This document shows positions 49 through 11,972 of a stretch of 11,972 nucleotides of DNA, piece after piece. The notes under the pieces are model-generated. The model saw nothing but the letters and a program-made list of their open reading frames with translations. It was not told where the DNA came from and made no database searches. Source of the stretch: a virus. The translations under genes and the position numbers were made by a program. The stretch is taken from the IMG/VR virus record IMGVR_UViG_3300045988_047384, positions 1 to 11,972 of that record. One strand, given 5' to 3'. Every line of letters begins with the position of its first letter. The first letter of the stretch is position 1.

Positions 49-68
49 AAAGGTACACAAGGCACCCA

Positions 69-188
69 TTTTTAACATTTCCCAACACACTTTTAACACT
101 CTCTAACACACTTTGGCACACTTTTTGCTGTGTGCCGCAATTACGATTATTTAACACAATTAACACACCGTTAATACTGTTAAACTTT
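69..188. repeat. Array of TTAAC(A/C)-type motifs spaced about 10 bp apart, plus a hairpin, inside the ITR (mirrored at 11785-11904)
   Basis: AACAT/AACAC cores lie at 74, 84, 95 and 105, with GCACAC at 116. TTAACAC lies at 151 and 161, TTAATAC at 171 and TTAAAC at 180. Spacing is 9-11 bp. A hairpin GGCACAC-N8-GTGTGCC lies at 115-136. Confidence 0.6.
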
Positions 189-198
189 CATAAAAATA

Positions 199-243
199 AT
201 GTTTCACGTGGAACGGTGGTAACGGGGTGTTTCACGTGAAACA
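199..243. promoter_or_regulatory. Two copies of a CACGTG-centred palindromic operator-like site (mirrored at 11730-11774)
   Basis: GTTTCACGTGGAAC lies at 201-214. The perfect 14-bp palindrome GTTTCACGTGAAAC lies at 229-242 and extends to GTGTTTCACGTGAAACA at 227-243. The two copies are 28 bp apart. Confidence 0.5.
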
Positions 244-293
244 AGTGTTAACAACAGTTAATTTATTTCTTTAAGACTTTTTAACAAAAATAA

Positions 294-325
294 TTTGGTG
301 GTTTCGCAAAAACGTTGTACCTTTG
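294..325 (+). promoter_or_regulatory. Bacteroidota-type promoter inside the left ITR, driving the + arm
   Basis: TTTG (294-297), a 20-nt spacer, then TACCTTTG (318-325). This matches TTTG-N19-21-TAnnTTTG. The first + strand ATG is at 375. Confidence 0.55.
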
Positions 326-374
326 CATCAGAGTTAAGAAACATATAAGTTTAACAAATTAAATTAGGTAAATT

Positions 375-542
375 ATGAATGAGAATTTTAATGAAACTGT
401 TTTCAACTGTATTACCAGTGTCAACGCTCTTATGACTTCGAACGAGGTTGCTAAAGACGATAAGGCGGTTATTAAGTTGAACCGCTTTAAGAAGTGGTTG
501 AACGAGTTTGCGGCTGCAAACGGTGTGAACGAGGTTAAGTAA
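375..542 (+). CDS. Hypothetical small early protein (55 aa), below the ORF-track length cutoff
   Basis: Hand translation gives MNENFNETVFNCITSVNALMTSNEVAKDDKAVIKLNRFKKWLNEFAAANGVNEVK* with ATG at 375 and TAA at 540-542. It is co-oriented with the ITR promoter and all neighbouring genes. I prefer it to the antisense 359-562 ORF. Confidence 0.5.
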   Translation: MNENFNETVFNCITSVNALMTSNEVAKDDKAVIKLNRFKKWLNEFAAANGVNEVK

Positions 543-593
543 TTAACCCCGTTCAAAGACAACAGAAGTTTAACGTTTAAAAGGTTTTAAGTT

Positions 594-959
594 ATGCAAA
601 AGGGTTTTAGTTTTGCTAGTACTTTTAATAAGACTAGTTTCGGGATTGATACAACAGATTTCCCGTTTGTTAAGTTGGTTGACATTTTCAACGATAATAA
701 AGACGGTGGTGGCGATGTGGTGCACCCTATCAACGGTTTGTACGTTCATAAGTCACAGTTGGGGGATTCGCCCGTTATCATTGATGCCGAAAACAAACGA
801 CTTGTTAATTTACCCCAGTTTACAGGTGACACAATTCGTGACATTTTGGCGAATAGTGAGGCTGTAGATGCTATCAAAGCCAACAAAGTTGGTTACACGA
901 TTTATGAATATGAATCGCACGCCAAAAAGTGTTACGGTATTACCTTTGTAGATAAGTAG
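594..959 (+). CDS. Hypothetical early protein (121 aa); possible phi29 p5-like ssDNA-binding protein
   Basis: Clean ATG ORF followed by an intrinsic terminator. Its size (121 aa against 124 aa for p5), its position ahead of the TP/polymerase pair, and a weak C-terminal resemblance to p5 as I recall it suggest the function. The functional call is weak. Confidence 0.55.
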   Translation: MQKGFSFASTFNKTSFGIDTTDFPFVKLVDIFNDNKDGGGDVVHPINGLYVHKSQLGDSPVIIDAENKRLVNLPQFTGDTIRDILANSEAVDAIKANKVGYTIYEYESHAKKCYGITFVDK

Positions 960-986
960 TTGTAAGGTGAAAGGGTTGATAACGTC

Positions 987-1027
987 ACGGGGTAAACAGT
1001 AATTTATTTATTGTTACCCCGTTTTTT
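987..1027 (+). terminator. Intrinsic terminator or attenuator after the 121-aa gene
   Basis: Stem ACGGGGTAA (987-995) pairs with TTACCCCGT (1014-1022) and is followed by T6 (1022-1027). No recognisable promoter lies between it and the ATG at 1053. Confidence 0.6.
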
Positions 1028-1052
1028 GTTTCATTTTAAATTTTAGTAAGTT

Positions 1053-1715
1053 ATGGCAAAAAAGAATCCAATAGGGTTTAGTAAAAGAACTTTTTCATTT
1101 ACGGGAAAAATTCACGTAAAAAGCGAGATTTTAACCGCTTTGGAATCAGACCCCGTTTTGCGTAAAGAGATTGCCCGAACTTTTCAACAGGCAAACCGGC
1201 GCATACAAAATGTTGAAGATTCGGGTATCGTTTCGCCTGCAGTTGTTGCCCTTAACAAAGGTGACGTGAAAGGGTTTGCAAAGTTTTCAATGAAACACGA
1301 TTGGAACGATTTAAAAATCGAATATGCCAAAGCGGTGGCGTTTTTGCAACAACCTACATCAAGTGCAACGGGTGCGAAAGAATATGCGCAACACCTAAAG
1401 AGCACGTACAAACTAAACGATGATGAATTTAGTTTGATGCAAAATAAATTAATGGGTAAGATTGCGAGTGTTTCCGATGAAAAGTTTTTGGAGCAATATT
1501 TAATGCAATACAAAGACTTTACGGGCGAACTTGAACAAGAAAGTAAAGACGTTTCAGACCAAATCGAAGACGATGCGATAAAAATAGCAGATTCGTTGCA
1601 AGATGACTTGAACGAACAGGCAGAAGCTATCGAAGAAGAGCATGAACGAATGAGTGGTTTATTAGATGATACACTTACAAAGATTCTAAAAAGTTTCAAA
1701 AAATTCGGTTTATAA
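1053..1715 (+). CDS. Candidate terminal protein (220 aa)
   Basis: It lies immediately upstream of the protein-primed polymerase, and its stop overlaps the polymerase start (TAATG at 1713-1717), as with phi29 gp3-gp2. The N-terminus is basic and the C-terminal part is helical and acidic. Assignment rests on synteny and composition only. Confidence 0.55.
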   Translation: MAKKNPIGFSKRTFSFTGKIHVKSEILTALESDPVLRKEIARTFQQANRRIQNVEDSGIVSPAVVALNKGDVKGFAKFSMKHDWNDLKIEYAKAVAFLQQPTSSATGAKEYAQHLKSTYKLNDDEFSLMQNKLMGKIASVSDEKFLEQYLMQYKDFTGELEQESKDVSDQIEDDAIKIADSLQDDLNEQAEAIEEEHERMSGLLDDTLTKILKSFKKFGL

Positions 1716-3925
1716 TGAAAAAGATACCCTTTGAACTTCACACCGAAATTTACACGCCTAAAGATATTGCAAAGGTTTTATCTTTGGCGGTGAATGAAAA
1801 GAACTTCACAGGAAACAATAAGGGCGAAAAGTTATTAAATGTGCCTGTTTCATTTGATATTGAAACTACTTCATTTTATCGTGATGAAGACGGGGAAACA
1901 TATAGTTATGACCGTTACATAAAATTAGGTGGTAAAGATACCAAAATGGAAAAATGTAGTTTAATGTATGTTTGGCAATTTGGAATAAACGGTTTTTGCA
2001 TTATTGGTAGAACGTGGGAAGAATTTTTGCAAATGTTAGATGATATCGTGGAAATAATGAATTTGAACCAAAAAAGGCGCATTATTATATACGTTCACAA
2101 TTTGGCTTATGAATTCCAATTTTTCAGAGAGTTATTGCAATGGGCAAAGGTTTTTTCAATAGACCTTAGAAAACCTATTTACGGAATCACAGAAAACGGA
2201 ATAGAGTTCAGATGTAGTTATTTGCTTTCGGGTTATTCACTTGCAAAACTCGGTGAACAATTACGCAAATATAAATGTGAAAAGTTGGTTGGTGATTTAG
2301 ATTACAGCCTGTTACGGCACAGCAAAACCCCGTTAACGCAAAAAGAAATGGGTTATTGTTTGAACGATATTAAAGTAGTTATGTGCTATATACAGGAATT
2401 AATCGAACAATACAAAAACATTACCCATTTGCCGATAACAAAGACAGGCTTTGTGCGCAAATATTGCCGTTCTGTGTGTTTCAAGACAACAGACCCAGAA
2501 ACAGGTAAAACGGTACAGAATTTTAAGTATTTGGATAAAATCCATAACTTAAATATAACAGGTATAGAAGAGTTTGAAATGCTACAAAGGGCTTTTTCGG
2601 GCGGTTTCACACACGCAAATGCAAAATATACGGATGAGGTAATAGAAAACGTAGATAGTTACGATTTTACTAGTAGCTACCCGTATGTGATGGTAAGCGA
2701 AAAATTTCCTATGAGTACAGGTGTATTTGTTCCTGTTAAGTCTATGAAACAATTTGAGTTTATGACCTCAAAATATTGCTGTGTCTTTGACGTGGAATTT
2801 ACCAACATCTTTGCAAATTCGGATAATGAAAACCCAATATCTGTTAGTAAGTGTTTCGTAAAAGAAAATGTTTCAGAAAATAACGGTCGTTTGGTTTGTG
2901 CTAGTAAAATCTGTATGACTATCACGGAAATAGATTACAAAGTGTTTTCACAGTTCTATATGTGGGAATCTGTGAGAATAGGCAAAATGATCTGTTACCG
3001 AAAAGAATATTTGCCCACCGAGTTTATAAAATCTATTTTGCACCTGTATGAAATGAAAACAAAACTAAAAGGTGTAAAGGGCAAGGAAGTAGAGTATTTA
3101 AATAGCAAGGAAATGCTGAATAGCTGCTACGGTATGAGTGTAACAAACCCTTTGCGGGATGAAATTGTATGTGATGGTAAAACGTGGGACGTTGAACACT
3201 TGACAGGCGGAAAACGCTTAGAGGTGCTGAACAGATACAATGACAGCAGAAACCGTTTTCTTTTCTATCCGTGGGGAATCTATGTAACAGCCTATGCACG
3301 TAGGAATCTGTTTACAGGTATAGCGGAATGCGGTGACGATTACATATATAGCGACACAGACAGCGTAAAAATAAAAAATGGTGAAAACCATAAAGAGTAT
3401 TTCAAAGCCTATAACGATTTGGCACAGCAAAAATTGCGGGCGGCCTGTAAGTTTCACAAAATACCCTTTGAAAAGGTTGAACCTGTAACGATAAAGGGAA
3501 TCGCAAAACCGTTGGGGGTTTGGGATTATGAGGGACGTTACAACCGTTTCAAAACTTTAGGTGCAAAACGTTATATGGTGGAAGAAGAAAACGTCCTAAC
3601 AGTAAACGGCAAAGATTACAATTATTCCATGACCGTTTCGGGCGTTAACAAAAAATCAGCTATCCCTTATATGTTAAAAACCTTTGGAGAAAGTGGAATC
3701 TTTGATGCGTTCACAAATTATCTGGATATTCCACCTAGTGCAACAGGTAAGAATATTCATACATATATTGATTACGAACAAACGGGAACAATAAAAGACT
3801 ATATGGGCAACGTTTCAAGTTACGACACTACAACGGGGGTGCACTTAGAACCAACGGGGTACACTTTAAGTCTTTCAGTTCTTTATATAAATTATTTAAT
3901 GGGAATCAGATTAAAGAAAGAATAA
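1715..3925 (+). CDS. Family-B DNA polymerase, protein-primed type (736 aa)
   Basis: Readable motifs:
- ExoI: SFDIETTS
- ExoII: YVHNLAYEF
- ExoIII: YCLNDIKVV
- motif A: DSYDFTSSYPYVM
- motif B: KEMLNSCYGMS
- motif C: YSDTDSV (nt 3347-3367)
- KxY: GAKRY. Confidence 0.97.
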   Translation: MKKIPFELHTEIYTPKDIAKVLSLAVNEKNFTGNNKGEKLLNVPVSFDIETTSFYRDEDGETYSYDRYIKLGGKDTKMEKCSLMYVWQFGINGFCIIGRTWEEFLQMLDDIVEIMNLNQKRRIIIYVHNLAYEFQFFRELLQWAKVFSIDLRKPIYGITENGIEFRCSYLLSGYSLAKLGEQLRKYKCEKLVGDLDYSLLRHSKTPLTQKEMGYCLNDIKVVMCYIQELIEQYKNITHLPITKTGFVRKYCRSVCFKTTDPETGKTVQNFKYLDKIHNLNITGIEEFEMLQRAFSGGFTHANAKYTDEVIENVDSYDFTSSYPYVMVSEKFPMSTGVFVPVKSMKQFEFMTSKYCCVFDVEFTNIFANSDNENPISVSKCFVKENVSENNGRLVCASKICMTITEIDYKVFSQFYMWESVRIGKMICYRKEYLPTEFIKSILHLYEMKTKLKGVKGKEVEYLNSKEMLNSCYGMSVTNPLRDEIVCDGKTWDVEHLTGGKRLEVLNRYNDSRNRFLFYPWGIYVTAYARRNLFTGIAECGDDYIYSDTDSVKIKNGENHKEYFKAYNDLAQQKLRAACKFHKIPFEKVEPVTIKGIAKPLGVWDYEGRYNRFKTLGAKRYMVEEENVLTVNGKDYNYSMTVSGVNKKSAIPYMLKTFGESGIFDAFTNYLDIPPSATGKNIHTYIDYEQTGTIKDYMGNVSSYDTTTGVHLEPTGYTLSLSVLYINYLMGIRLKKE

Positions 3926-3926
3926 T

Positions 3927-5063
3927 ATGAAACAGAAGAAAGAAAAGGTAGAAACACCGAAATTCTACACGTTGAATCGAATTTTATCAAAGAATGCAGA
4001 TTACAATGTAATTTTCGGTGAACGTTCCAACGGTAAGACCTATGCAACGTTACTGTATGGAATCAAAGAATATTTGCGCACAGGAAAACAAATGGCTTAT
4101 ATTCGTAGATGGCGAGAGGATTTAAGGGGCAAACGTGCCGAAAGTTTGTTTGCAAACCACGTTTCAAACGGTGTTGTAGAAGAACTTACAAACGGCAAAT
4201 TTAACGAAGTGTTTTACGTTTCGGGCAAATGGTTTCTTTCAAGCTATGATCCCGAAACAAAGAAACGTGTACCCGATAACGTGCCGTTCTGTTTCGGTTT
4301 CTGTCTGTCAGAACAGGAGCACGAAAAAAGTAGTAGTTACCCGAATATAACTACTATAGTTTTCGATGAGTTTTTGACAAGACGTTATTATTTGCCCGAT
4401 GAGTTCATGTTGTATATGAACCTGTTGAGTACTATTATCAGACAGCGAAACGATGTTAAAGTGTTTATGCTGGGAAACACCGTGAATCAGTTTTGCCCGT
4501 ATTTTACAGAAATGGGGCTGAAACAGGTGCGGGTGATGGAACAGGGCACAATAGATATTTATAAATTCGGTGAACACGGTGCAACCGTGGCTGTAGAATA
4601 TTGCAGTACTATTGTTAAGCAGAAAGCGAGTAACAAATATTTCTGTTTCGATAATCAAAACCTGCAGATGATTACGGGTGGTAAGTGGGAACTTGCTGTT
4701 TATCCTCATCTACCTGTGAAATATACCCCGAAAGATGTGCTTTTCGTTTTCTATATACAGTTTAACGAAATGACATTACAGGGTAATATAATACAGGTGG
4801 AATCCTCAGACGGTGTTAATAACTTTATGTATATACATAACAAAACAACACCGATTAAGGACATGGAAAACAGTTTGATTTATTCCCTTTGTATGAACGG
4901 AAAACCAAACTACAGGCGAAAGTTATTATCTACAGCTAGTTACGTGGAATCTCAGATAACAAAGTATTTCGCCACCGATAAGGTATTTTATCAGAATAAC
5001 GAAATCGGTGAAATTGTGCGTAACTACTTAATGGCTAGTAGCAGAAGTAACATTATAACTTAA
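3927..5063 (+). CDS. DNA packaging (encapsidation) ATPase, phi29 gp16-like (378 aa)
   Basis: Walker A is GERSNGKTY (nt 4017-4043) and Walker B is TIVFDEF. The surrounding pattern (...AYIRRWRED..., SYPNITTIVFDEFLTR, FMLGNTVNQFCPYF) runs in parallel with phi29 gp16. Confidence 0.9.
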   Translation: MKQKKEKVETPKFYTLNRILSKNADYNVIFGERSNGKTYATLLYGIKEYLRTGKQMAYIRRWREDLRGKRAESLFANHVSNGVVEELTNGKFNEVFYVSGKWFLSSYDPETKKRVPDNVPFCFGFCLSEQEHEKSSSYPNITTIVFDEFLTRRYYLPDEFMLYMNLLSTIIRQRNDVKVFMLGNTVNQFCPYFTEMGLKQVRVMEQGTIDIYKFGEHGATVAVEYCSTIVKQKASNKYFCFDNQNLQMITGGKWELAVYPHLPVKYTPKDVLFVFYIQFNEMTLQGNIIQVESSDGVNNFMYIHNKTTPIKDMENSLIYSLCMNGKPNYRRKLLSTASYVESQITKYFATDKVFYQNNEIGEIVRNYLMASSRSNIIT

Positions 5064-5071
5064 TATCTGTT

Positions 5072-5117
5072 AAAACAGGGAAAAAAGTGTTTAACGTGAA
5101 ACATTTTCCCTGTTTTT
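5072..5117 (+). terminator. Intrinsic terminator after the replication/packaging operon, with an operator-like site in its loop
   Basis: A perfect 13-bp stem, AAAACAGGGAAAA (5072-5084) pairing with TTTTCCCTGTTTT (5104-5116), merges into a T-run. The 19-nt loop contains GTGTTTAACGTGAAACA (5087-5103). Confidence 0.65.
5087..5103. promoter_or_regulatory. Internal copy of the ITR palindromic operator-like motif
   Basis: GTGTTTAACGTGAAACA matches the ITR sequence GTGTTTCACGTGAAACA (227-243) at 16 of 17 positions. It lies 16 nt upstream of the -33 element of the internal promoter. Confidence 0.5.
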
Positions 5118-5118
5118 A

Positions 5119-5177
5119 TTTGGTTGTTTCAGATATTTTGTTTATCTTTGCACCATTAAATAACAAAGTTAAATTTG
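5119..5177 (+). promoter_or_regulatory. Internal Bacteroidota-type promoter or promoters for the structural-gene operon
   Basis: TTTG (5119-5122), 20 nt, then TATCTTTG (5143-5150). A second overlapping match is TTTG (5147-5150), 19 nt, then TAAATTTG (5170-5177), ending 5 nt before the ATG at 5183. Confidence 0.55.
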
Positions 5178-5182
5178 GCTAT

Positions 5183-5377
5183 ATGGACGTAAACGCAATA
5201 GTATCGTTAATTAGTAATGTTGGTTTTCCTGTAGCTGTCTGTATCGCCCTTTTCTTTTATATGGAAAAGCAAAACGAAAGACATCAGAATGAAACCGACA
5301 AGTTAAATGAAACAATACAGAGTAACACGAAAGTGTTAACTGAACTTTGTACGTTAATTAAAACACTTGTAAAGTAA
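5183..5377 (+). CDS. Small single-pass membrane protein (64 aa), YvrJ-like; holin/lysis candidate
   Basis: I used the internal ATG at 5183, because the track's GTG start at 5087 lies inside the terminator and promoter. The N-terminus MDVNAIVSLISNVGFPVAVCIALFFYMEK has one hydrophobic helix and the N-x-GFP-x-x-V signature I recall for the YvrJ family. The C-terminus is charged and helical. Its stop overlaps the portal start (TAATG). Confidence 0.6.
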   Translation: MDVNAIVSLISNVGFPVAVCIALFFYMEKQNERHQNETDKLNETIQSNTKVLTELCTLIKTLVK

Positions 5378-6474
5378 TGAAAAAAGATAATCTTTATAAC
5401 TTGTATCAAACACAGGTAAAAGACAAAGATACAGCCTTAGATACGTTCTTTCAGCGAGTTCTTTGTATGACATCAAAGATGTTTGAGTACACAGGGTTAC
5501 CCGATTCGATTCCACAGGTAGAACTTGAAAAGATTCTGCAGACATCGGGTAACGTTGGTATCGCAGAAGTAAACGGGGAACTGTATGCGTTACAGGGTAC
5601 ACGGGGCGGAGAATGTGATGCGTATTATCACGGCAAAGATTACGTTGTTGCAAACCCGTGGTTAAATTTGAACAAAACGTTTAAAATTGATTCCGATATT
5701 GTCGTTATCAACAACACACCGTTTGCAGATTCACTTTTGCCGATAATCGGCAAATATGGCGTACTTTACACCGATGCGGCAATAACGCTTAATTTGGCTA
5801 GCATTTTAACACGTATCACTATGTTGATTTCTGCTAGTGACGATAAGACCAAACAAAGCGCAGAATCTTTTTTGCAGAAGATTTTAAACGGTGATTTCTC
5901 AGTAATCGGGGAAAATGCCTTTTTCAAAGGTGTTAACTTACAAACACCCCAGACACAGGGAAACCAGCAAATCGGGCAATTAATTGAACTTTTGCAGTAC
6001 TATAAAGCTTCAATGTTCAACGATTTAGGTTTGAATGCAAACTATAATATGAAACGTGAACGTTTGAACACGCAAGAAGTTTCAATGAATATAGACGCTT
6101 TAATGCCGTTCGTTGATTCAATGTTAACAGAACGTGTTGAGGGTGTAAAACGTGTTAACGAAATGTTTGGCACAGATATTACGGTAACGTTGGGGTCTAG
6201 TTGGAAGATTGAGCACGAAAATTATTTGTCGTTACTCAAAGCAACAGAAGACGGGCACGACCACACCGATACAGAAGACGTTGACACTGTAACCGAAAAC
6301 GAAAATGAAGAAACAGAAGAAACGCAAGAAACAGAAGAAACGGAAACAGAAACAGAAGAAACGCAAGAAACAGAAGAAACGGAAACAGAAACAGAAGAAA
6401 CAGAAGAAACAGAAGAAACAGAAGAAACACAAGAAACAGAAACAGAAGAAAAAGAAAACAAAGATGAAAATTAA
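5377..6474 (+). CDS. Portal (connector / upper collar) protein, phi29 gp10-like (365 aa), with a repeat-encoded acidic tail
   Basis: F-E-Y-T-G-L-P...LEKIL...G-N-V-G parallels the phi29 gp10 N-terminus (FEWENLP...LEKSI...GYVGF). NMKRERLNTQEVSMN parallels NLEKKERMVTDEVSSN. The last ~65 residues are almost entirely E/T/Q/N. Confidence 0.82.
   Translation: MKKDNLYNLYQTQVKDKDTALDTFFQRVLCMTSKMFEYTGLPDSIPQVELEKILQTSGNVGIAEVNGELYALQGTRGGECDAYYHGKDYVVANPWLNLNKTFKIDSDIVVINNTPFADSLLPIIGKYGVLYTDAAITLNLASILTRITMLISASDDKTKQSAESFLQKILNGDFSVIGENAFFKGVNLQTPQTQGNQQIGQLIELLQYYKASMFNDLGLNANYNMKRERLNTQEVSMNIDALMPFVDSMLTERVEGVKRVNEMFGTDITVTLGSSWKIEHENYLSLLKATEDGHDHTDTEDVDTVTENENEETEETQETEETETETEETQETEETETETEETEETEETEETQETETEEKENKDEN
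6307..6453 (+). repeat. Purine-rich tandem repeat: 39-bp unit x2, then 9-bp GAAGAAACA-type units
   Basis: 6316-6354 and 6355-6393 are identical 39-mers (GAAGAAACGCAAGAAACAGAAGAAACGGAAACAGAAACA). They are followed by GAAGAAACA x4 and degenerate copies. The region encodes (E/T/Q)n in the portal frame. Confidence 0.9.
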
Positions 6475-7033
6475 CGAACTTTTCACGGGTGAAAATGGTT
6501 TGTTTGAAAAAATCTTCGCACCCATGTTTCCTGTTTTGTACAAATCAATATTCGGTGAAGATGACCCGAAAATAATTGATATTGATTTACGTTTCAAATA
6601 TGGAAACAGAAATCTAGTTGATGCAGTCACAAACGAAACTGCAACCGATATTGTTAAAAGCATTATCACGGTGAAGTTTGATGAATGGCAAAAACAGATT
6701 CAAGTGTTTAATAAAGAATATGACGTGTTAAACCCTGTAACATCAAAGAAGACGGAAACAACAAATAACACCGTTGACGAAACAGGCAATAATAACACGG
6801 TAGATTCAAGTGTAACTTTTAATGATGGAGATTTCGGAAATGACACAAAGCAGCAGCGAGATTCCACAGGGAACAGACAAGAAACTGGTACGAAAACAAC
6901 TGTTGAAAACAGTGTTCCGTCTTTCGTTCCTACTAGTGAAATTATTCAAAAAGAAATGAGTTTGCGCAAAACTAATTTCAAAACGCAAGTTATTGCAGAA
7001 CTTGCAAACGAGTTAACAGTAGATATTTATTAA
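6464..7033 (+). CDS. Virion protein (189 aa); possible lower collar / head-tail adaptor (gp11-like) or scaffold
   Basis: I used the ATG at 6464 (MKINELF...), which overlaps the portal stop by 11 nt. It lies between portal and capsid genes. It has a central T/N/S/G-rich low-complexity segment and a conserved-looking C-terminus (IIQKEMSLRKTNF...ELTVDIY). The functional call is tentative. Confidence 0.45.
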   Translation: MKINELFTGENGLFEKIFAPMFPVLYKSIFGEDDPKIIDIDLRFKYGNRNLVDAVTNETATDIVKSIITVKFDEWQKQIQVFNKEYDVLNPVTSKKTETTNNTVDETGNNNTVDSSVTFNDGDFGNDTKQQRDSTGNRQETGTKTTVENSVPSFVPTSEIIQKEMSLRKTNFKTQVIAELANELTVDIY

Positions 7034-7051
7034 TACTTAATTTTTATAAAA

Positions 7052-8236
7052 ATGGAAGTAAAACAGATTTATACTTTAGTAAACACAGTATCTGGTGAAG
7101 TTTTGGGTAAAACCGATATTGTCAAAGAAGATTTAACGGGTATCGTTGATTTGGGCAATGAGATTTTTAATCAAAATGCCGTTGACAATTACGTTAAATC
7201 GCTTGTAAACCATATCGGCAAAGTTGTTTTCGTAAACCGCCCTTACAGTGGTAAAGTTCCTAGCGTTTTGATGGATGCGTGGGAATTTGGTTCAGTTTTG
7301 GAAAAGATTTCAGCTGACGTTCCAAATGCTGAAGAGAATGACACGTGGAATCTTACAGACGGTAAAGAGTACAAACAGGACGTGTTCCACAAACCAACGG
7401 TTTCTGCTAAGTTCTTCAACTCTAAGGTAACTTTTGAAGTTCCCGTATCTATCACAGAAAGACAGGTAAAGGAATCTTTCAGCAGTGCAGAACAGTTGAA
7501 CGGTTTCATGTCAATGATTTATTCAGCCGTTGAAAAGTCAATGACTATCAAAACCGATGCACTTGTTATGCGTACTATTAACAATATGATTGCGGAAACT
7601 TTGGATGCAGACAAAGCCGCTTTCGGTTTTGTAACGTCAACACACGAAACAGTAGATTATTCTACTGCATCAACTGTTCGTTGTGTAAACTTGTTGCACC
7701 TTTACAACGAGAAGACGGGGGCAAAGTTGGCGGCAAACGTTGCCGTAACAACACCCGACTTTATCCGTTTTGCCGCTTACATTATGGGTTTGTATGCTGA
7801 CCGTTTGCAGACCATTTCGACTTTGTTCAACGTTGGAGGAAAAGAACGTTTCACACCGAAAGACGTGTTGCATACCGTTTTGTTGAGTGACTTTGCAGCC
7901 GCTGCAAAAACTTACCTGTATGCCGATACGTTCCATAATGAAAACGTGTTGTTGCCACAGGCTGAAACCGTTGCAAGTTGGCAAGCAACGGGCACAGATT
8001 ACGCTTTCGCCAACGTTTCAAAGGTTGACGTTAAGAGTGCAAGCGGTGCAACAGTTTCTATCGGGGGCGTGTTGGGTGTGATGTTTGACCGTGACGCTTT
8101 GGGCGTAACCAATTTGGATAAGCGAGTGACAACCAATTACAACGCCAAAGCAGAATTTTTCAACAATTATTTCAAATTCGATGCAGGCTACTTCAACGAC
8201 ACAAACGAAAACTTCGTTGTATTCTTTGTTGCCTAG
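7052..8236 (+). CDS. Major capsid protein, phi29 gp8-like (394 aa)
   Basis: NAVDNYVKSLVNHIGKVVFVNRP parallels phi29 gp8 NDFITSLVDRIGLVVIRQ. ...FSSAEQLNGFMSMIYSAVEKSMTIKTDALVMRTINN parallels ...[36 protein letters not shown]. A strong terminator follows, which suits a highly expressed gene. Confidence 0.82.
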   Translation: MEVKQIYTLVNTVSGEVLGKTDIVKEDLTGIVDLGNEIFNQNAVDNYVKSLVNHIGKVVFVNRPYSGKVPSVLMDAWEFGSVLEKISADVPNAEENDTWNLTDGKEYKQDVFHKPTVSAKFFNSKVTFEVPVSITERQVKESFSSAEQLNGFMSMIYSAVEKSMTIKTDALVMRTINNMIAETLDADKAAFGFVTSTHETVDYSTASTVRCVNLLHLYNEKTGAKLAANVAVTTPDFIRFAAYIMGLYADRLQTISTLFNVGGKERFTPKDVLHTVLLSDFAAAAKTYLYADTFHNENVLLPQAETVASWQATGTDYAFANVSKVDVKSASGATVSIGGVLGVMFDRDALGVTNLDKRVTTNYNAKAEFFNNYFKFDAGYFNDTNENFVVFFVA

Positions 8237-8254
8237 TTTTATTGTTTAACTGTT

Positions 8255-8300
8255 GGGGGTGTTTCTGTAGTTGATAACACAGGAATACCCCCCTTTTAAT
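8255..8300 (+). terminator. Intrinsic terminator or attenuator after the capsid gene
   Basis: A 14-bp stem, GGGGGTGTTTCTGT (8255-8268) pairing with ACAGGAATACCCCC (8279-8292), includes two G-U pairs that form only in the + strand RNA. The loop is 10 nt and CTTTTAATTTTT follows. Confidence 0.65.
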
Positions 8301-8309
8301 TTTTGCGGT

Positions 8310-8753
8310 ATGATTAAAATTAAAACTTTCGTTTACAACGGCAAACCAAACGAAGTAAACAAGACTTTACAGGCAAACAAAGAGTACACGGGCGTATTGA
8401 ACGCAACGTTTAATGTTTTAACGCCTGTAGTACGTTTCAGAACTCGCACGCCGGTAACTTTCAATTACGTTTACATCGAAAGTTTGAACCGTTATTATTT
8501 CGTTTCTGAGAAACAACAAGACGGTGATATTTGCACAGTTCGTTTGCGTGTTGACGTTCTGTTTACTTATAAGGATACTATTTTGAACAGTACGGGCAAA
8601 ATGATAAAAGGCGAAAACGTGGATAAATATCTTTCAAACCGTTCAAACGTTTTCGATTCACGCCCTAATATCAGAAAACTAGATTTTCCGAATAAAGAGC
8701 TGTTGAGTGAAGACGGTAGTATTATTATGGTAACAATTAAGGGAAATGTTTAA
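8310..8753 (+). CDS. Tail protein (147 aa) resembling the N-terminal domain of phi29 gp9 tail knob
   Basis: I used the ATG at 8310, because the track's TTG start at 8271 lies inside the terminator hairpin. NYVYIESLNRYYFVSEKQQDGDICTVRLRVDVLFTY parallels gp9 [42 protein letters not shown]. Confidence 0.5.
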   Translation: MIKIKTFVYNGKPNEVNKTLQANKEYTGVLNATFNVLTPVVRFRTRTPVTFNYVYIESLNRYYFVSEKQQDGDICTVRLRVDVLFTYKDTILNSTGKMIKGENVDKYLSNRSNVFDSRPNIRKLDFPNKELLSEDGSIIMVTIKGNV

Positions 8754-8755
8754 TT

Positions 8756-10318
8756 ATGAAAGTAACTTATAACATATCAGATCAAACAACCGTTATCGGG
8801 AACAAACCCGAAACGATTGAAAAGGGTGAGACTTTAAGTTTGAACTTACAGGCAAACACTGGATATAAGTTTGACCCTGCGCCGTTGGTTGCTATCAGAA
8901 CATCAAGTTTTCAGTATATCAATACAAACTTTGTTTTGGATTCCACAGGGAAAAAAGCAACGATTTCTTATGACATACCATCGAACGCCGCAGCGTGTAC
9001 CGTTAAGGCTTTTACTGTAGAAAGTGCAGACCCCAAACCCGAAACCGTAACAGTTACAAATACGTTATCAAATTGTACTAGTTCGTTAAACGATGGAACG
9101 GTAAACAAAGGGGAAGAGATAACAATAACTTTGACCGCAAACACGGGGTTTTCTTTTTCGGGTGCTGCCCCAACTGTTGACTACGAAACAACGGGCACGC
9201 CGTCAACGGTTTTTAATGTAGCTAGCGACAAATTAACCGCATCGGTTACAATTACACCAAACGACAATTTTACAATTAATGCTGACGCCCACGAAATTAA
9301 AACGTTTGTAAACGTTACATATAATTTGAAAAATTGTGTTTCAAGTTTGACGGGTAAAACTGTAGAAAAGGGCAAAGAAATTACGGTAACGGTGACGGCA
9401 AACGAAAATGCAATATTTGACGGAATAACTCCAAACGTTTACTATCTAGAGCACGGAATTCCGAAAACGGTTAACTTTACGCTAGATACAGAAAAGAAAA
9501 CTGGAAAGCTTACATTTACGCCAAATTTCAACTTCACTTTTAATGCCAACGCAAACATAATTGAACCTGTTGCAAAAAATTACGGTGCAATTAATGTTTA
9601 TAAAGTAAGTTTGGAAAATTTGGATGCTTTCAGTAAGCAACGTTTTTCTAAAGTTGTTGATGAAACAACAGGTGCAACACAAACCGTTAATTTAGGCGTT
9701 TATGTAAACCGAATAAAGCGCATTTTTGCCAACGTTCCAGTAAGTGGTACGGATAACTTGAAATGCGGTAACTACGATACAAAAATTATCGTGGAATCCC
9801 CAAAGACCGATATTTTAACAATAAATTTCGGAAACGTTGCCCTTACAGGGTTAAACGGTAACAATTCCGATTACGATGCAAAGATTTCGGTTTTTATCCC
9901 GTGCCGTGGTTTTGTTCCTGTTGATAGTTCATACATCGGTAAAACGGTTAACTTATCTTTGAAAGTTAACATCGTTACGGGTGATGCCGTGGCGTTCCTA
10001 TCGTGTGCCGGTACAACATTTCAGTTTGAAAGTTTTTCTTTGTCCCGTGATGTTATTTATCGAACAGGGGATAACGATTTAAATCTTATTGGCGGTGACG
10101 AATGGAACGAACAAATTTTATATGGTTTAGAACCTTACTTTTTGATAACGGAAAATAAAACCGTTGACGTTGTGATAAACAACACGCAAAAAGAAGTAAA
10201 GTTGCAAGACGTAACAGGGTTTGCACAGTTTGAAAACGTGGATTTGAACACGGTTAATTTGTTGGTAGATGAGTATAACACCATTATTTCAGAACTTGAA
10301 AACGGTGTTTATCTATAA
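8756..10318 (+). CDS. Tail knob / receptor-binding protein (520 aa): three tandem beta-rich repeat domains plus a gp9-like C-terminal part
   Basis: Repeats are aa 1-96, 97-183 and 184-270 (nt 8756-9565). They share V-T-Y-N-L-x-N-C...V-x-K-G-x-E-I-T-(I/V)-T-(L/V)-T-A-N...P-x-V-x-Y...F-T-(I/F)-N-A. C-terminal segments (ISVFIPCRGFVPVD...LSLKVNIVTGD and ...LLVDEYNTIISELENGVYL) resemble gp9 (MMYPYCVTEITDF... and ...DLQEIRTIFDNGITLW). Confidence 0.55.
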   Translation: MKVTYNISDQTTVIGNKPETIEKGETLSLNLQANTGYKFDPAPLVAIRTSSFQYINTNFVLDSTGKKATISYDIPSNAAACTVKAFTVESADPKPETVTVTNTLSNCTSSLNDGTVNKGEEITITLTANTGFSFSGAAPTVDYETTGTPSTVFNVASDKLTASVTITPNDNFTINADAHEIKTFVNVTYNLKNCVSSLTGKTVEKGKEITVTVTANENAIFDGITPNVYYLEHGIPKTVNFTLDTEKKTGKLTFTPNFNFTFNANANIIEPVAKNYGAINVYKVSLENLDAFSKQRFSKVVDETTGATQTVNLGVYVNRIKRIFANVPVSGTDNLKCGNYDTKIIVESPKTDILTINFGNVALTGLNGNNSDYDAKISVFIPCRGFVPVDSSYIGKTVNLSLKVNIVTGDAVAFLSCAGTTFQFESFSLSRDVIYRTGDNDLNLIGGDEWNEQILYGLEPYFLITENKTVDVVINNTQKEVKLQDVTGFAQFENVDLNTVNLLVDEYNTIISELENGVYL

Positions 10319-10321
10319 AAG

Positions 10322-10352
10322 AAAAGGGACGGTACAAATGCCGCCCCTTTTT
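10322..10352. terminator. Bidirectional intrinsic terminator where the two arms converge
   Basis: AAAA-GGGACGGTA (10326-10334), loop CAAA, then TGCCGCCCC (10339-10347) and TTTTT. It has an A-tract on one side and a T-tract on the other. It sits between the + stop at 10318 and the - stop at 10354. Confidence 0.7.
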
Positions 10353-10353
10353 C

Positions 10354-10599
10354 TTATTTGCTGTAAAATTCGTTCATTAAACCTTTCTTACCAAGGAAAT
10401 CAAAACATCTGTTTTTGATACCCATTTCTACATCTAAACAGTTAGAAAGATATTCAACTACTTTCTGCTGTGCCTGTAGTGTATCGATTACAGAGTTAAG
10501 CAATAAACCGTTATTACCTGTAGTGTTTTCTGCTACAAACTTTAAATTATCAATGGAAACTGAAATAGAATCCTGCAAAACCTTAAAACCTTTTTGCAT
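10354..10599 (-). CDS. Hypothetical protein (81 aa), last gene of the right arm
   Basis: ATG ORF starting 3 nt after the endolysin stop. It is predicted soluble and helical, and I recognise no motif. Confidence 0.55.
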   Translation of the reverse strand: MQKGFKVLQDSISVSIDNLKFVAENTTGNNGLLLNSVIDTLQAQQKVVEYLSNCLDVEMGIKNRCFDFLGKKGLMNEFYSK

Positions 10600-10602
10600 A
10601 AC

Positions 10603-11025
10603 TTATTTCTTTTCTAAGTTCATAATAATCTGTTGACGTGGTTTACCATTTCGTGGTGATACCGAAACGTGATACCAAAAACTTTTAGAGCCTTTGCGGT
10701 GCTCTTTAATAAGTTGATCAAACCCACCTGTTTCTCTCAGAACCTTTCCCAAAGATTCCATATCGGCACAAATTAAATCTGCGGCTAAACCCTTTTGGTG
10801 TTGGCTGTTAGTTACACCACCTACAGCCTTATTTAACACAGGACATCTAAAACCGCTAGAAATAAGAATCGGTTTACCCACCTTTTCACGGATTCCATCT
10901 AGATAATCTGCTAGACGGTTTAAGTTGTCCACTACCTCAAACGTTGGCATATTGTCTATGCTAAGACGTTTTGCGGTTGCTGAATTAATAAACTCAGACA
11001 ATTTAAAATACTTGATCCTTTTCAT
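10603..11025 (-). CDS. Peptidase M15 (M15_3 / DD- or LD-peptidase fold) endolysin (140 aa)
   Basis: The family signature is ...PILISSGFRCPVLNKAVGGVTNSQHQKGLAADL...FWYHVSV. The Zn ligands H-x6-D (SQHQKGLAAD) and a distal H (YHV) are present. There is no signal peptide. Confidence 0.88.
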   Translation of the reverse strand: MKRIKYFKLSEFINSATAKRLSIDNMPTFEVVDNLNRLADYLDGIREKVGKPILISSGFRCPVLNKAVGGVTNSQHQKGLAADLICADMESLGKVLRETGGFDQLIKEHRKGSKSFWYHVSVSPRNGKPRQQIIMNLEKK

Positions 11026-11026
11026 A

Positions 11027-11227
11027 TTACTTTTCTGTTGGTAAAACTACAAACCATTTACGAGTATCTTTGTGAGTTGGAAAACGACCTTTAACTGTAA
11101 TTGAGCAATCGCCCAAAAGGTAGTCTATTTTATTGTTAAAGAACTCGCTTACTTTATCAGAACGTACCATATAAACGGTAACGTTATTAACCTGTTTCAA
11201 AGTGATTTTAAAATAACTATGTTCCAT
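11027..11227 (-). CDS. Hypothetical protein (66 aa from ATG 11227; 80 aa if GTG 11269 is used)
   Basis: ORF MEHSYFKITLKQVNNVTVYMVRSDKV.... I prefer the ATG because the upstream GTG lies inside a G-rich hairpin. Its stop abuts the endolysin start. Confidence 0.5.
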   Translation of the reverse strand: MEHSYFKITLKQVNNVTVYMVRSDKVSEFFNNKIDYLLGDCSITVKGRFPTHKDTRKWFVVLPTEK

Positions 11228-11281
11228 ATTATATGTATTTATGCCCGTGAGTGATACCCCCACCCCCACAGGCTGTTAATA

Positions 11282-11611
11282 TTAACAGATTCTTTCGGCT
11301 GTAAACTCATAACGTACTGTTTCGATGTACTCACCGCTATATATGTTAGTTACAGTTACGAAACCGTAACCAATAGCGTAAATATCTGCAATGTTGCTTT
11401 TATAAGCATACATCGTTTTAGGATAACGTACACCCTGTATAGGGATTCTATTCATATTATAAATGCCTGTTAGCATTTTATTAATATGGTTTGCCACTTC
11501 GTACATATTACCATTTATAACAGTAGATGAAAATGGAATATCTTTGGTGAAACGTGTGCCGTTACAATGTGCGTCACGGTTTGCCTTTACTGTAATATTG
11601 TACTTTGCCAT
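11282..11611 (-). CDS. Hypothetical protein (109 aa), first gene of the right arm
   Basis: ATG at 11611, 36 nt downstream of the right-ITR promoter -7 element. I recognise no motif. Confidence 0.6.
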   Translation of the reverse strand: MAKYNITVKANRDAHCNGTRFTKDIPFSSTVINGNMYEVANHINKMLTGIYNMNRIPIQGVRYPKTMYAYKSNIADIYAIGYGFVTVTNIYSGEYIETVRYEFTAERIC

Positions 11612-11627
11612 AATTTAATTGTTTTAC

Positions 11628-11924
11628 TATGTTTCTTAACTCTGATGCAAAGGTACAACGTTTTTGCGAAACCACCAAATTATTTTTGTTAAAAAGTCTT
11701 AAAGAAATAAATTAACTGTTGTTAACACTTGTTTCACGTGAAACACCCCGTTACCACCGTTCCACGTGAAACATTATTTTTATGAAAGTTTAACAGTATT
11801 AACGGTGTGTTAATTGTGTTAAATAATCGTAATTGCGGCACACAGCAAAAAGTGTGCCAAAGTGTGTTAGAGAGTGTTAAAAGTGTGTTGGGAAATGTTA
11901 AAAATGGGTGCCTTGTGTACCTTT
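11628..11924. repeat. Right inverted terminal repeat (297 bp)
   Basis: Perfect reverse complement of 49-345, ending ...GTACCTTT directly before the adapter. Confidence 0.93.
11648..11679 (-). promoter_or_regulatory. Bacteroidota-type promoter inside the right ITR, driving the - arm
   Basis: Mirror image of 294-325: CAAAGGTA at 11648-11655 (TACCTTTG on the - strand) and CAAA at 11676-11679, with a 20-nt spacer. Confidence 0.55.
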
Positions 11925-11972
11925 AGATCGGAAGAGCACACGTCTGAACTCCAGTCACAGTCAACAATCTCG
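11925..11972. other. Illumina TruSeq index adapter; technical contamination
   Basis: AGATCGGAAGAGCACACGTCTGAACTCCAGTCAC-AGTCAACA-ATCTCG. Confidence 0.97.

Follow-up and report, generated by a model that had tools for sequence, protein, structure and literature searches.

An 11.9-kb phi29-type phage genome from a well-populated gut lineage, with expression signals of the Bacteroidota type

Which bacterium supports a very small phi29-type phage whose expression signals differ from those of phi29 and of its own cultured relatives? The question is raised by the IMG/VR virus record IMGVR_UViG_3300045988_047384, a stretch of 11,972 nucleotides (nt) that we call the window. All positions given below are those of this whole stretch, and the phage genome occupies 49–11924 within it. 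The genome is linear, 11,876 bp long, with a GC content of 36.9%, and its 15 genes lie in three blocks (a rightward left block, a middle block and a leftward right-end block). We conclude that the window contains, in complete form, the linear genome of a virulent podophage of the phi29 type. From its promoters, its lack of Shine-Dalgarno (SD) sequences and an adenine-rich tract before its start codons, we infer that the host is a member of the Bacteroidota (probability about 0.8), probably one of the gut Bacteroidales. These three signal classes are independent of one another and all point to this phylum.

The closest cultured relatives are Astrithrvirus-like phages of Gammaproteobacteria with genomes of 10.4–11.9 kb (Astrid, Phanie, DU_PP_III and K58 g2; major capsid protein (MCP) 55–59% identical), whose hosts are Salmonella, Acinetobacter, Pectobacterium and Vibrio. 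The original prediction, made from the sequence by itself, had placed the known phi29-like phages on Firmicutes, Mycoplasma and Actinomyces and had considered about 11.9 kb an exceptional size. The nearest relatives turn out to be gammaproteobacterial phages, and the size is typical of their group.

Translation starts separate the window from these relatives. None of its 15 genes has GGAG, GAGG or AGGA upstream, and the mean anti-SD pairing energy (−1.06 kcal/mol) equals the background (−1.09), whereas SD sequences precede 73–85% of the genes in the proteobacterial relatives: 11 of 15 in Astrid (mean energy −6.3) and 11 of 13 in Phanie (−7.1), with mean energies of −5.9 in DU_PP_III and −4.1 in K58 g2. 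The lack of SD sequences that had been predicted is therefore borne out. In their place, adenine makes up 67, 73, 87 and 53% of positions −14 to −11 across the 15 genes, against a background of 34.5%, and position −3 is a purine in 14 of them, so that the window genes lack SD sequences and are enriched in adenine both over −14 to −11 and at −3. Related genomes without SD show the same pattern (adenine at 61–71% over −14 to −11 in 62 genes), and SD-using relatives have a G peak at −13 to −7 in place of the adenine peak. An adenine tract before start codons is characteristic of Bacteroidetes (PMC6847099, PMC7366714).

The Bacteroides fragilis siphophage B40-8 served as a positive control. Over −14 to −11 its genes have 65–67% adenine; it also has almost no SD sequences (anti-SD energy −1.08), four intergenic copies of the promoter motif described below (TTTG-N19-21-TAnnTTTG) and a similar GC content (38.6%). 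Its M15 endolysin is related to that of the window (47% identical), but B40-8 is otherwise an unrelated 45-kb siphovirus that has no replication or structural genes in common with the window.

The second class of signal is formed by three promoters, one of which lies in each inverted terminal repeat (ITR) and one in the middle of the genome.

294–325, plus strand: promoter P_L, TTTG-N20-TACCTTTG, of the Bacteroidota sigma-A type; heads orf1 and the genes for the single-stranded DNA-binding protein (SSB), candidate terminal protein (TP), polymerase and ATPase.
5119–5150, plus strand: promoter P_M, TTTG-N20-TATCTTTG; heads the operon of structural and holin genes.
11648–11679, minus strand: promoter P_R, the ITR copy of P_L; heads the right-end operon, reading leftward.

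TTTG at −33 and TAnnTTTG at −7 make up the consensus that has been published for the primary sigma factor of Bacteroides (PMC7366714). The original prediction had named three intergenic TTTG-N20-TAnnTTTG promoters; the motif does stand at all three operon heads, but the third site is a copy of the first. The bipartite motif TTTG-N19-21-TAnnTTTG occurs four times in the window against 0.53 expected (a count of four was reached in one of 200 shuffles), and three times in the non-duplicated part against 0.55 expected (P = 0.02, 1000 shuffles). Every match is intergenic, although only 9% of the genome is, and directed into an operon; the full motif is confined to the three operon heads. The prediction had also proposed a chance-frequency test of TAnnTTTG, and here the outcome is divided: this half of the motif by itself is not significantly enriched (24 observed, 18 ± 4 expected, P = 0.10), while the bipartite motif is. 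Because of the first result, the statistics obtained within the window are only suggestive.

For these promoters the comparison with related genomes is decisive. Among the 174 IMG/VR contigs that encode a close relative of the MCP, we took the best 80 (MCP 89–97% identical, core genes about 90%; mostly 11–12.7 kb, a few truncated) and aligned them with the window, giving 81 sequences. In 80 of the 80 relatives the middle promoter stands between the gene for the ATPase and that for the holin, and the end promoters are kept in nearly all assemblies that reach the genome ends. Both boxes, TTTG and TA..TTTG, are 100% invariant over the 81 sequences, while the 20-nt spacer averages 75% and falls to 40–50% at some positions. 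Where the ITR is shorter than the promoter, so that the left and right copies are separate sequences, the boxes are the same and the spacers different. The −7 box is kept at the same two places in relatives with 69–78% MCP identity. The bipartite motif is absent from the corresponding operon heads of Astrid, Phanie, DU_PP_III and K58 g2, whose GC content is similar or lower. With invariant boxes in 81 genomes, no SD sequences and an adenine peak like that of B40-8, the proposal of Bacteroidota-type expression signals stands. The type of signal also tracks phylogeny, in both MCP and polymerase: the SD-less genomes are one group (MCP 70–91% and polymerase 56–89% identical), with at most 63% and 50% identity, respectively, to SD-using genomes.

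Could these signals be mere by-products of an A/T-rich genome, with a proteobacterium or a Firmicute as host, as in the cultured relatives? The GC content of 36.9%, the unremarkable frequency of TAnnTTTG alone and the fact that all cultured relatives grow on Gammaproteobacteria would fit such an explanation. Yet Phanie (37.4% GC), DU_PP_III (37.4%) and K58 g2 (32.4%) are as A/T-rich and have motif-free operon heads and SD sequences at most genes. In the window, the full motif stands only at the three operon heads, and across the clade its boxes remain fixed while the spacer drifts. A scan for sigma-70 promoters found none at any operon head; its best matches fall within genes or have the wrong strand. 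For phages of Enterobacteria or Firmicutes, to have no SD sequence at all would be highly unusual. We therefore consider this explanation very improbable.

Several observations nevertheless weigh against a phi29-type phage of the Bacteroidota. The IMG/VR relatives are close (about 90% amino acid identity), and the conservation of the motif is partly shared ancestry; the variable spacers and the distant relatives L088, L089 and L092 argue against this as the whole explanation. The endolysin gives the host assignment only weak support: its best phage matches, at 45–47% identity, are endolysins of B. fragilis siphophages and of Achromobacter phages, which match equally well. SD-poor translation is also found in some Cyanobacteria (PMC6847099). 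A scan of a genome collection with the MCP found no isolate assembly, only phage-only contigs in bins of metagenome-assembled genomes (MAGs) from mixed phyla, and the two closest of these contigs lie in MAGs of Gastranaerophilales / Melainabacteria. As to the phi29 type itself, it is position that carries the assignment of the terminal protein, and packaging may differ in mechanism from that of phi29, since no packaging RNA (pRNA) was found; the search gave no Rfam match even at E ≤ 1, with an Rfam model that is built from Bacillus phages and may miss a divergent pRNA. A protein search for cellular homologues of the endolysin was uninformative for the host, as the top 120 matches all belonged to the phage clade itself.

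The MAG placements raise the alternative that the host is a gut Melainabacterium (Gastranaerophilales) and that the phage contigs were binned there because they replicate in these cells. The two closest matches in the genome collection (91–92% MCP identity), obtained in separate and independent studies, both fall in such MAGs, a third and distant relative (L091) was binned in a 'Vampirovibrio' MAG, and some Cyanobacteria lack SD sequences (PMC6847099). However, every match is a whole-phage contig of 11–12 kb to which no host DNA is joined. Further relatives without SD were placed in MAGs of Firmicutes (Scatosoma, Tissierella, Christensenellaceae), a placement at odds with their lack of SD, which shows that binning follows low GC and not the host. 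The Melainabacteria-binned L091 itself uses a strong SD of the AAGGGGG type, unlike the clade of the window. The promoter type and the adenine tract, moreover, are both on record for Bacteroidota (PMC7366714, PMC6847099) and recur in B40-8. For these reasons we rejected MAG bins as evidence of host; low-GC binning explains the mixed placement, and we regard a melainabacterial host as improbable, the Bacteroidota remaining the preferred assignment.

Whole-phage contigs of this kind (L086–L095) occur in species-representative MAGs of GTDB assigned to Gastranaerophilales, Melainabacteria, Scatosoma, Tissierella, Christensenellaceae, Staphylococcaceae and Caryophanon. Being phage contigs in reference MAGs of unrelated phyla, they are contaminants and could mislead host prediction. 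L091 (11,843 bp; 59% MCP identity) has AAGGGGG or AAGGGGT upstream of most genes, a G-rich SD variant unlike that of the enterobacterial relatives as well as the signals of the window clade, and it may belong to yet another host group.

The claim that the genome is complete depends on its ends, where four features meet.

1–48, no strand assigned: Illumina TruSeq index adapter (reverse complement), non-phage DNA identified by reading the sequence; lies within a 345-nt inverted repeat.
49–345, plus strand: left ITR, 297 bp, starting 5'-AAAGGTACAC, with TTAACAC-type repeats, two palindromes and promoter P_L.
11628–11924, minus strand: right ITR, 297 bp, a perfect inverted repeat with termini shared among relatives.
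11925–11972, no strand assigned: Illumina TruSeq index adapter, non-phage DNA identified by reading the sequence.

The 48 nt at each contig edge are thus adapter, by direct reading, and the inverted repeat 1–345 / 11628–11972 (100% complementary) consists of these 48 nt and the 297-bp ITR. At least 14 independent IMG/VR assemblies among the 80 related contigs have both ends exactly at AAAGGTACAC, and in several further assemblies adapter directly precedes it, from which it follows that the genome ends, 5'-AAA, are true physical ends. The terminal approximately 80 nt are strongly conserved across the clade. Since both contig edges carry adapter and the perfect 345-nt repeat takes it in, one might suspect an assembly artefact, either a chimera or a palindromic end made by the adapter. 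Against this, dozens of independent assemblies from other samples share the gene order, the length and the AAAGGTACAC termini, and cultured relatives have ITRs of 84–219 bp; an artefact is hardly conceivable. Adapters, ITR and shared termini all agree with the earlier description of a complete phi29-type genome of 11,876 bp after trimming, with perfect ITRs.

The left ITR likely holds a replication origin. Repeated TTAACAC-like units at 70–114 and 150–200, mirrored in the right ITR and including a 21-nt tandem repeat at 70–114, are possible sites for a replication or genome-organising protein. Some assemblies (L003, L061, L072 and L077) have one to three extra A residues before AAAGGTACAC, which could be heterogeneity from sliding back or an A-tailing artefact.

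A short palindrome and four hairpins accompany the promoters.

201–242, no strand assigned: palindrome GTTTCACGTG(G/A)AAC, two copies (201–214 and 229–242), mirrored at 11731–11744 and 11759–11772; a fifth copy lies at 5089–5102.
987–1026, plus strand: intrinsic terminator or attenuator hairpin with U-run, after the SSB gene (−19.3 kcal/mol, z = −5.0).
5072–5118, plus strand: intrinsic terminator at the end of the left operon (−18.3 kcal/mol, z = −5.3), with the palindrome copy 5089–5102 in its loop.
8255–8298, plus strand: terminator or attenuator hairpin after the capsid gene (−24.2 kcal/mol, z = −4.6).
10319–10356, no strand assigned: bidirectional intrinsic terminator hairpin between the convergent operons.

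The palindrome GTTTCACGTGAAAC has five matches against 0.14 expected, and relatives throughout the clade keep it. Each end promoter has two copies upstream of it, and the fifth copy is found just upstream of the middle promoter. The copies are likely sites for a regulator to bind. Protein p4 controls the promoters of phi29, and by analogy the placement of the palindromes suggests a dimeric regulator. L092 (69% MCP identity) has the palindrome core in six exact copies (at 193, 2443, 5825, 7455, 9577 and 11973), one of them inside the spacer of the late (middle) promoter. The four U-run hairpins (z-scores −4.4 to −5.3) close or attenuate transcription units, and the stem of the one at 5072–5118 shows compensatory changes among relatives.

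Where does this phage belong? By size, gene order and closest MCP, the window fits the Astrithrvirus-like lineage (cluster 23 of PMC11476376). These phages have genomes of 10.4–11.9 kb with ITRs and share one gene order: small ORF, TP-like ORF, protein-primed DNA polymerase of family B (PolB), gp16, small membrane protein, connector, a protein of about 190 amino acids (aa), MCP, a knob part of about 147 aa, a large knob part and leftward small genes. Identity to the window is 55–59% for the MCP, about 52% for the ATPase and 41–46% for the polymerase, with no similarity at the nucleotide level. The window differs from them in its TTTG/TAnnTTTG promoters and its lack of SD sequences, in an M15 endolysin encoded on the opposite strand (theirs, a CHAP or amidase enzyme, is encoded last in the rightward operon), in a longer ITR that holds the early promoter, and in an SSB related to that of Staphylococcus picoviruses. 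We rejected membership in the genus Astrithrvirus (MCP 59% and polymerase 46–47% identical to Astrithrvirus astrithr, no megablast match). No member of the phage collection exceeds 60% MCP identity to the window, and a whole-genome megablast against that collection gave no match.

With phi29 (Salasmaviridae) the window shares protein-primed PolB, homologues of gp16, gp10 and gp8, and 5'-AAA ends. Both have early genes at the two ends, read inwards or outwards from terminal promoters, and a central late structural block, and the modelled N-terminal knob part of the window may resemble the gp9 fold. However, phi29 has 19.3 kb and a 6-bp ITR, against 11.9 kb and 297 bp here. Further differences are the lack in the window of a detectable pRNA, of gp12 appendages, gp13, head fibre, a recognisable scaffold, p4 and p6; the split of gp9 into two genes; a candidate TP not detectably related to gp3; and the different host-type expression signals.

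The idea of a Bacteroidota member is not as new as the original prediction assumed, because a 2024 review had already suggested a phi29-like gut phage that infects Bacteroidales, with an MCP of a different cluster (PMC11476376). This 'Bacteriophage sp. isolate 2692_55609' is likewise a small phi29-like genome from human faeces (12,148 bp, proposed Bacteroidales host) and by description has a TP, an SSB, a small lower collar protein and a two-gene knob with Ig-like domains. It differs, again as described there, in belonging to a singleton MCP cluster related to an Amedibacillus phage and in its GC content of 42.5% (36.9% in the window). Another 2024 paper put Astrithrvirus in one group with 36 viruses from IMG/VR and three ancient phages of the gut; the supplementary data of PMC10805732 contain neither Astrithrvirus nor IMG/VR identifiers. 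In the literature we found no description of the lineage of the window or of its expression signals.

This lineage is not rare. Besides the 174 IMG/VR contigs, thousands of protein variants are catalogued (528 clusters at 90% identity for the endolysin, 2270 for the knob protein and 848 for the 147-aa protein, some of these clusters having over 1000 members), and on this basis the lineage is very common in public metagenomes. The record titles of its relatives name faecal and gut samples. Two gut 'Bacteriophage sp.' records with 29–33% MCP identity were considered as members and rejected, since they use SD sequences. The window is best treated as representing an undescribed, well-populated gut sister lineage of the Astrithrvirus-like phages.

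The left operon carries the genes for replication and packaging.

375–542, plus strand: orf1, 55 aa, first gene of the left operon, with no family match; 78–100% identity in the clade.
594–959, plus strand: SSB of the protein-primed-phage type, 121 aa, by similarity to annotated Staphylococcus phage SSBs.
1053–1715, plus strand: candidate TP, 220 aa, by position and conservation; its stop codon overlaps the polymerase start.
1715–3925, plus strand: protein-primed PolB (PF03175, phrog_1907, PDB match).
3927–5063, plus strand: DNA packaging ATPase of the gp16 type, 378 aa (PF05894, 3e-24; PHROGs).

PolB matches PF03175 (2e-15) and phrog_1907 (5e-71). Its sole PDB sequence match is the phi29 DNA polymerase (E = 8e-8), with the motif YSDTDS (YxDTDS) aligned. 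The SSB is 30–40% identical to annotated SSBs of the Staphylococcus phages P68, 44AHJD and SLPW. Homologues of the 220-aa candidate TP, among them Astrid ORF002 and Phanie 0020, stand directly upstream of the polymerase gene in 11 of the 14 genomes compared, that is, in all that keep the region, and the assignment agrees with the annotation of the relatives in the review (PMC11476376). The protein has no match in Pfam, PHROGs or PDB, and alignment of small family profiles (hhalign) detected no similarity to phi29 gp3. Compared with L002–L081, the candidate TP has alleles of two classes, one at about 70% and the other at about 95% identity to the window, in genomes that are otherwise similar, which suggests gene exchange between lineages. 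Its conserved Ser within 'SPA' and Thr within 'PTS-TG' could be the residues on which priming occurs. The genome contains no tRNA genes, and a permissive-threshold Rfam search of it gave no credible RNA family.

The middle operon encodes the virion proteins and the holin.

5183–5377, plus strand: holin, 64 aa, with one transmembrane segment (phrog_4898, 1e-8; hydrophobic residues 6–24).
5377–6474, plus strand: portal or upper collar connector of the gp10 type, 365 aa (PF05352, 3e-15; PHROGs), with an acidic (E-E-T)n C-terminal tail.
6464–7033, plus strand: candidate short lower collar or tail tube protein, 189 aa, conserved in every relative on the downstream side of the connector.
7052–8236, plus strand: MCP of the phi29 type, 394 aa (Phi29_MCP PF25622, 3e-54; PHROGs; relatives).
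8310–8753, plus strand: putative N-terminal part of the tail knob, 147 aa, with a tail-tube-like fold (AlphaFold2 (AF2) model, Foldseek).
8756–10318, plus strand: putative distal part of the tail knob, 520 aa, its N-terminal portion made up of three Ig-like domains and its C-terminal domain conserved.

Profile matches for PolB, the gp16 ATPase, the gp10 portal and the phi29 capsid uphold most of the phi29-type core that had been predicted, though the knob occupies two genes and the candidate TP has no detectable similarity to gp3. The 3' end of the portal gene (6307–6456) is a tandem DNA repeat with a period of 9 within a period of 39, encoding the acidic tail of approximately 55 residues; a separate scaffold gene was not recognisable in the genome. 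By analogy with the relatives described in PMC11476376, the 189-aa protein is a candidate for the short lower collar or tail tube, and hhalign gave a weak hint of phi29 gp11 (P = 0.014).

The equivalent of gp9 appears to be split into two genes, at 8310–8753 and 8756–10318, because both parts align to a single protein of a more distant, SD-using relative and the model of the first gives matches to gp9. In this relative (L095, 5600–7147) both knob parts form one 515-aa protein, whose N-terminus aligns with the 147-aa protein (E = 2e-6) and whose C-terminus aligns with the 520-aa protein (E = 4e-4); the fusion links the split knob genes of the Gram-negative branch to the fused arrangement of phi29-like phages. 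AF2 models residues 1–93 of the 147-aa protein with confidence. In Foldseek its best match is the SaPI1 neck protein (E = 1e-3), and phi29 gp9 (5FEI, 5FB5, 5FB4) has probabilities of 0.98–0.99 but E-values of 0.017–0.04. With small family alignments, hhalign gave a weak hint of gp9 (P = 6e-4) and no match to gp12 or gp13. The 520-aa model has three beta-sandwich domains (pLDDT 80–92) with generic Ig-like matches only, and its C-terminal half is poorly modelled. Sequence searches of the PDB found nothing credible for the candidate TP or the 189-, 147- and 520-aa proteins, and a Pfam search of the relatives' tail proteins gave a sub-threshold Caud_tail_N match for the Phanie homologue only.

The 520-aa knob protein is hypervariable within the clade (33–91% identity, against about 90% for core genes), and for this reason it is likely the specificity determinant. 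Its size variants of 520, 607 and 623 aa apparently reflect gain or loss of Ig-like domains.

A split knob has been described for Astrid, DU_PP_III and Phanie, and Phanie virions are reported to infect only once attached to a helper myophage by its contractile tail (PMC11476376). Might the gut phage, in the same host phylum, also need the tail of a helper, onto which its Ig-domain knob protein would dock? The split knob of Phanie is common to the relatives, which have no fibre genes (PMC11476376). The window has the same split knob, its knob protein is hypervariable and is modelled with Ig-like domains, and profile searches of its proteins recognised no fibre or appendage gene. On the other side, the Astrid-like phages of Salmonella were deposited as ordinary isolates, no helper is identifiable from the window, and hypervariability is equally expected of an ordinary receptor-binding protein. 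That the gut lineage is a Bacteroidota counterpart of Phanie, its hypervariable Ig-domain knob matching different helpers, seems to us an unlikely but serious possibility; if true, it would mean a widespread tail-borrowing way of life in the human gut.

The right-end operon is read leftward and encodes small proteins and the endolysin.

10354–10599, minus strand: protein of 81 aa, with variable alleles in the clade (ORF and clade comparison).
10603–11025, minus strand: endolysin, a single-domain M15_3 peptidase of 140 aa (4e-19) without a binding domain.
11027–11227, minus strand: basic protein of 66 aa (ORF).
11282–11611, minus strand: protein of 109 aa, first gene of the right operon (ORF).

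The endolysin is as had been predicted, an M15 peptidase that has no cell-wall-binding domain. A tblastn search of the phage collection found no homologue of the 109-aa protein. The start-codon stretches of the SSB gene (588–609) and of the 81-aa gene (10584–10605), on opposite strands, are 95% identical over 22 nt, and both proteins begin MQKGF. As a conserved element this similarity was rejected, being tied to one allele of the 81-aa gene that is present in 12 of 67 genomes.

We propose the following scheme for the life of this phage. By inference from phi29, the polymerase would start on the 220-aa candidate terminal protein at both ends, opposite 3'-TTT, and slide back as in phi29, a step that the AAA ends would permit; the SSB would coat the displaced strands. 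Each ITR would offer a near-identical promoter from which the primary sigma factor and RNA polymerase of the host read inwards, into the replication and packaging genes on the left and the genes of the small proteins and the endolysin on the right; the middle promoter would serve the genes for the virion and the holin. SSB and capsid protein are probably made in greater relative amounts owing to the hairpins that follow their genes, and the palindrome GTTTCACGTGAAAC may be the switch site for a regulator. Translation would initiate without SD pairing, aided by the A-rich tract at −14 to −11.

Most of the phages in culture for gut Bacteroidota are large siphoviruses or crAss-like phages. If the host assignment is right, a phi29-type phage of 12 kb and about 15 genes would be the smallest tailed phage known for this phylum. 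It would also be a source of parts, including two short and strongly conserved native promoters and SD-independent translation starts, and its self-contained protein-primed replicon might be adapted for Bacteroides genetics. A practical warning comes with the lineage, in that whole-phage contigs of its clade contaminate species-representative MAGs of unrelated phyla. The data reveal a large uncultured gut radiation within the Gram-negative branch of phi29-like phages. Because the expression signals switch cleanly between sister lineages while the gene order stays the same, these phages are a good case in which to see how a phage is retooled upon a change of host phylum.

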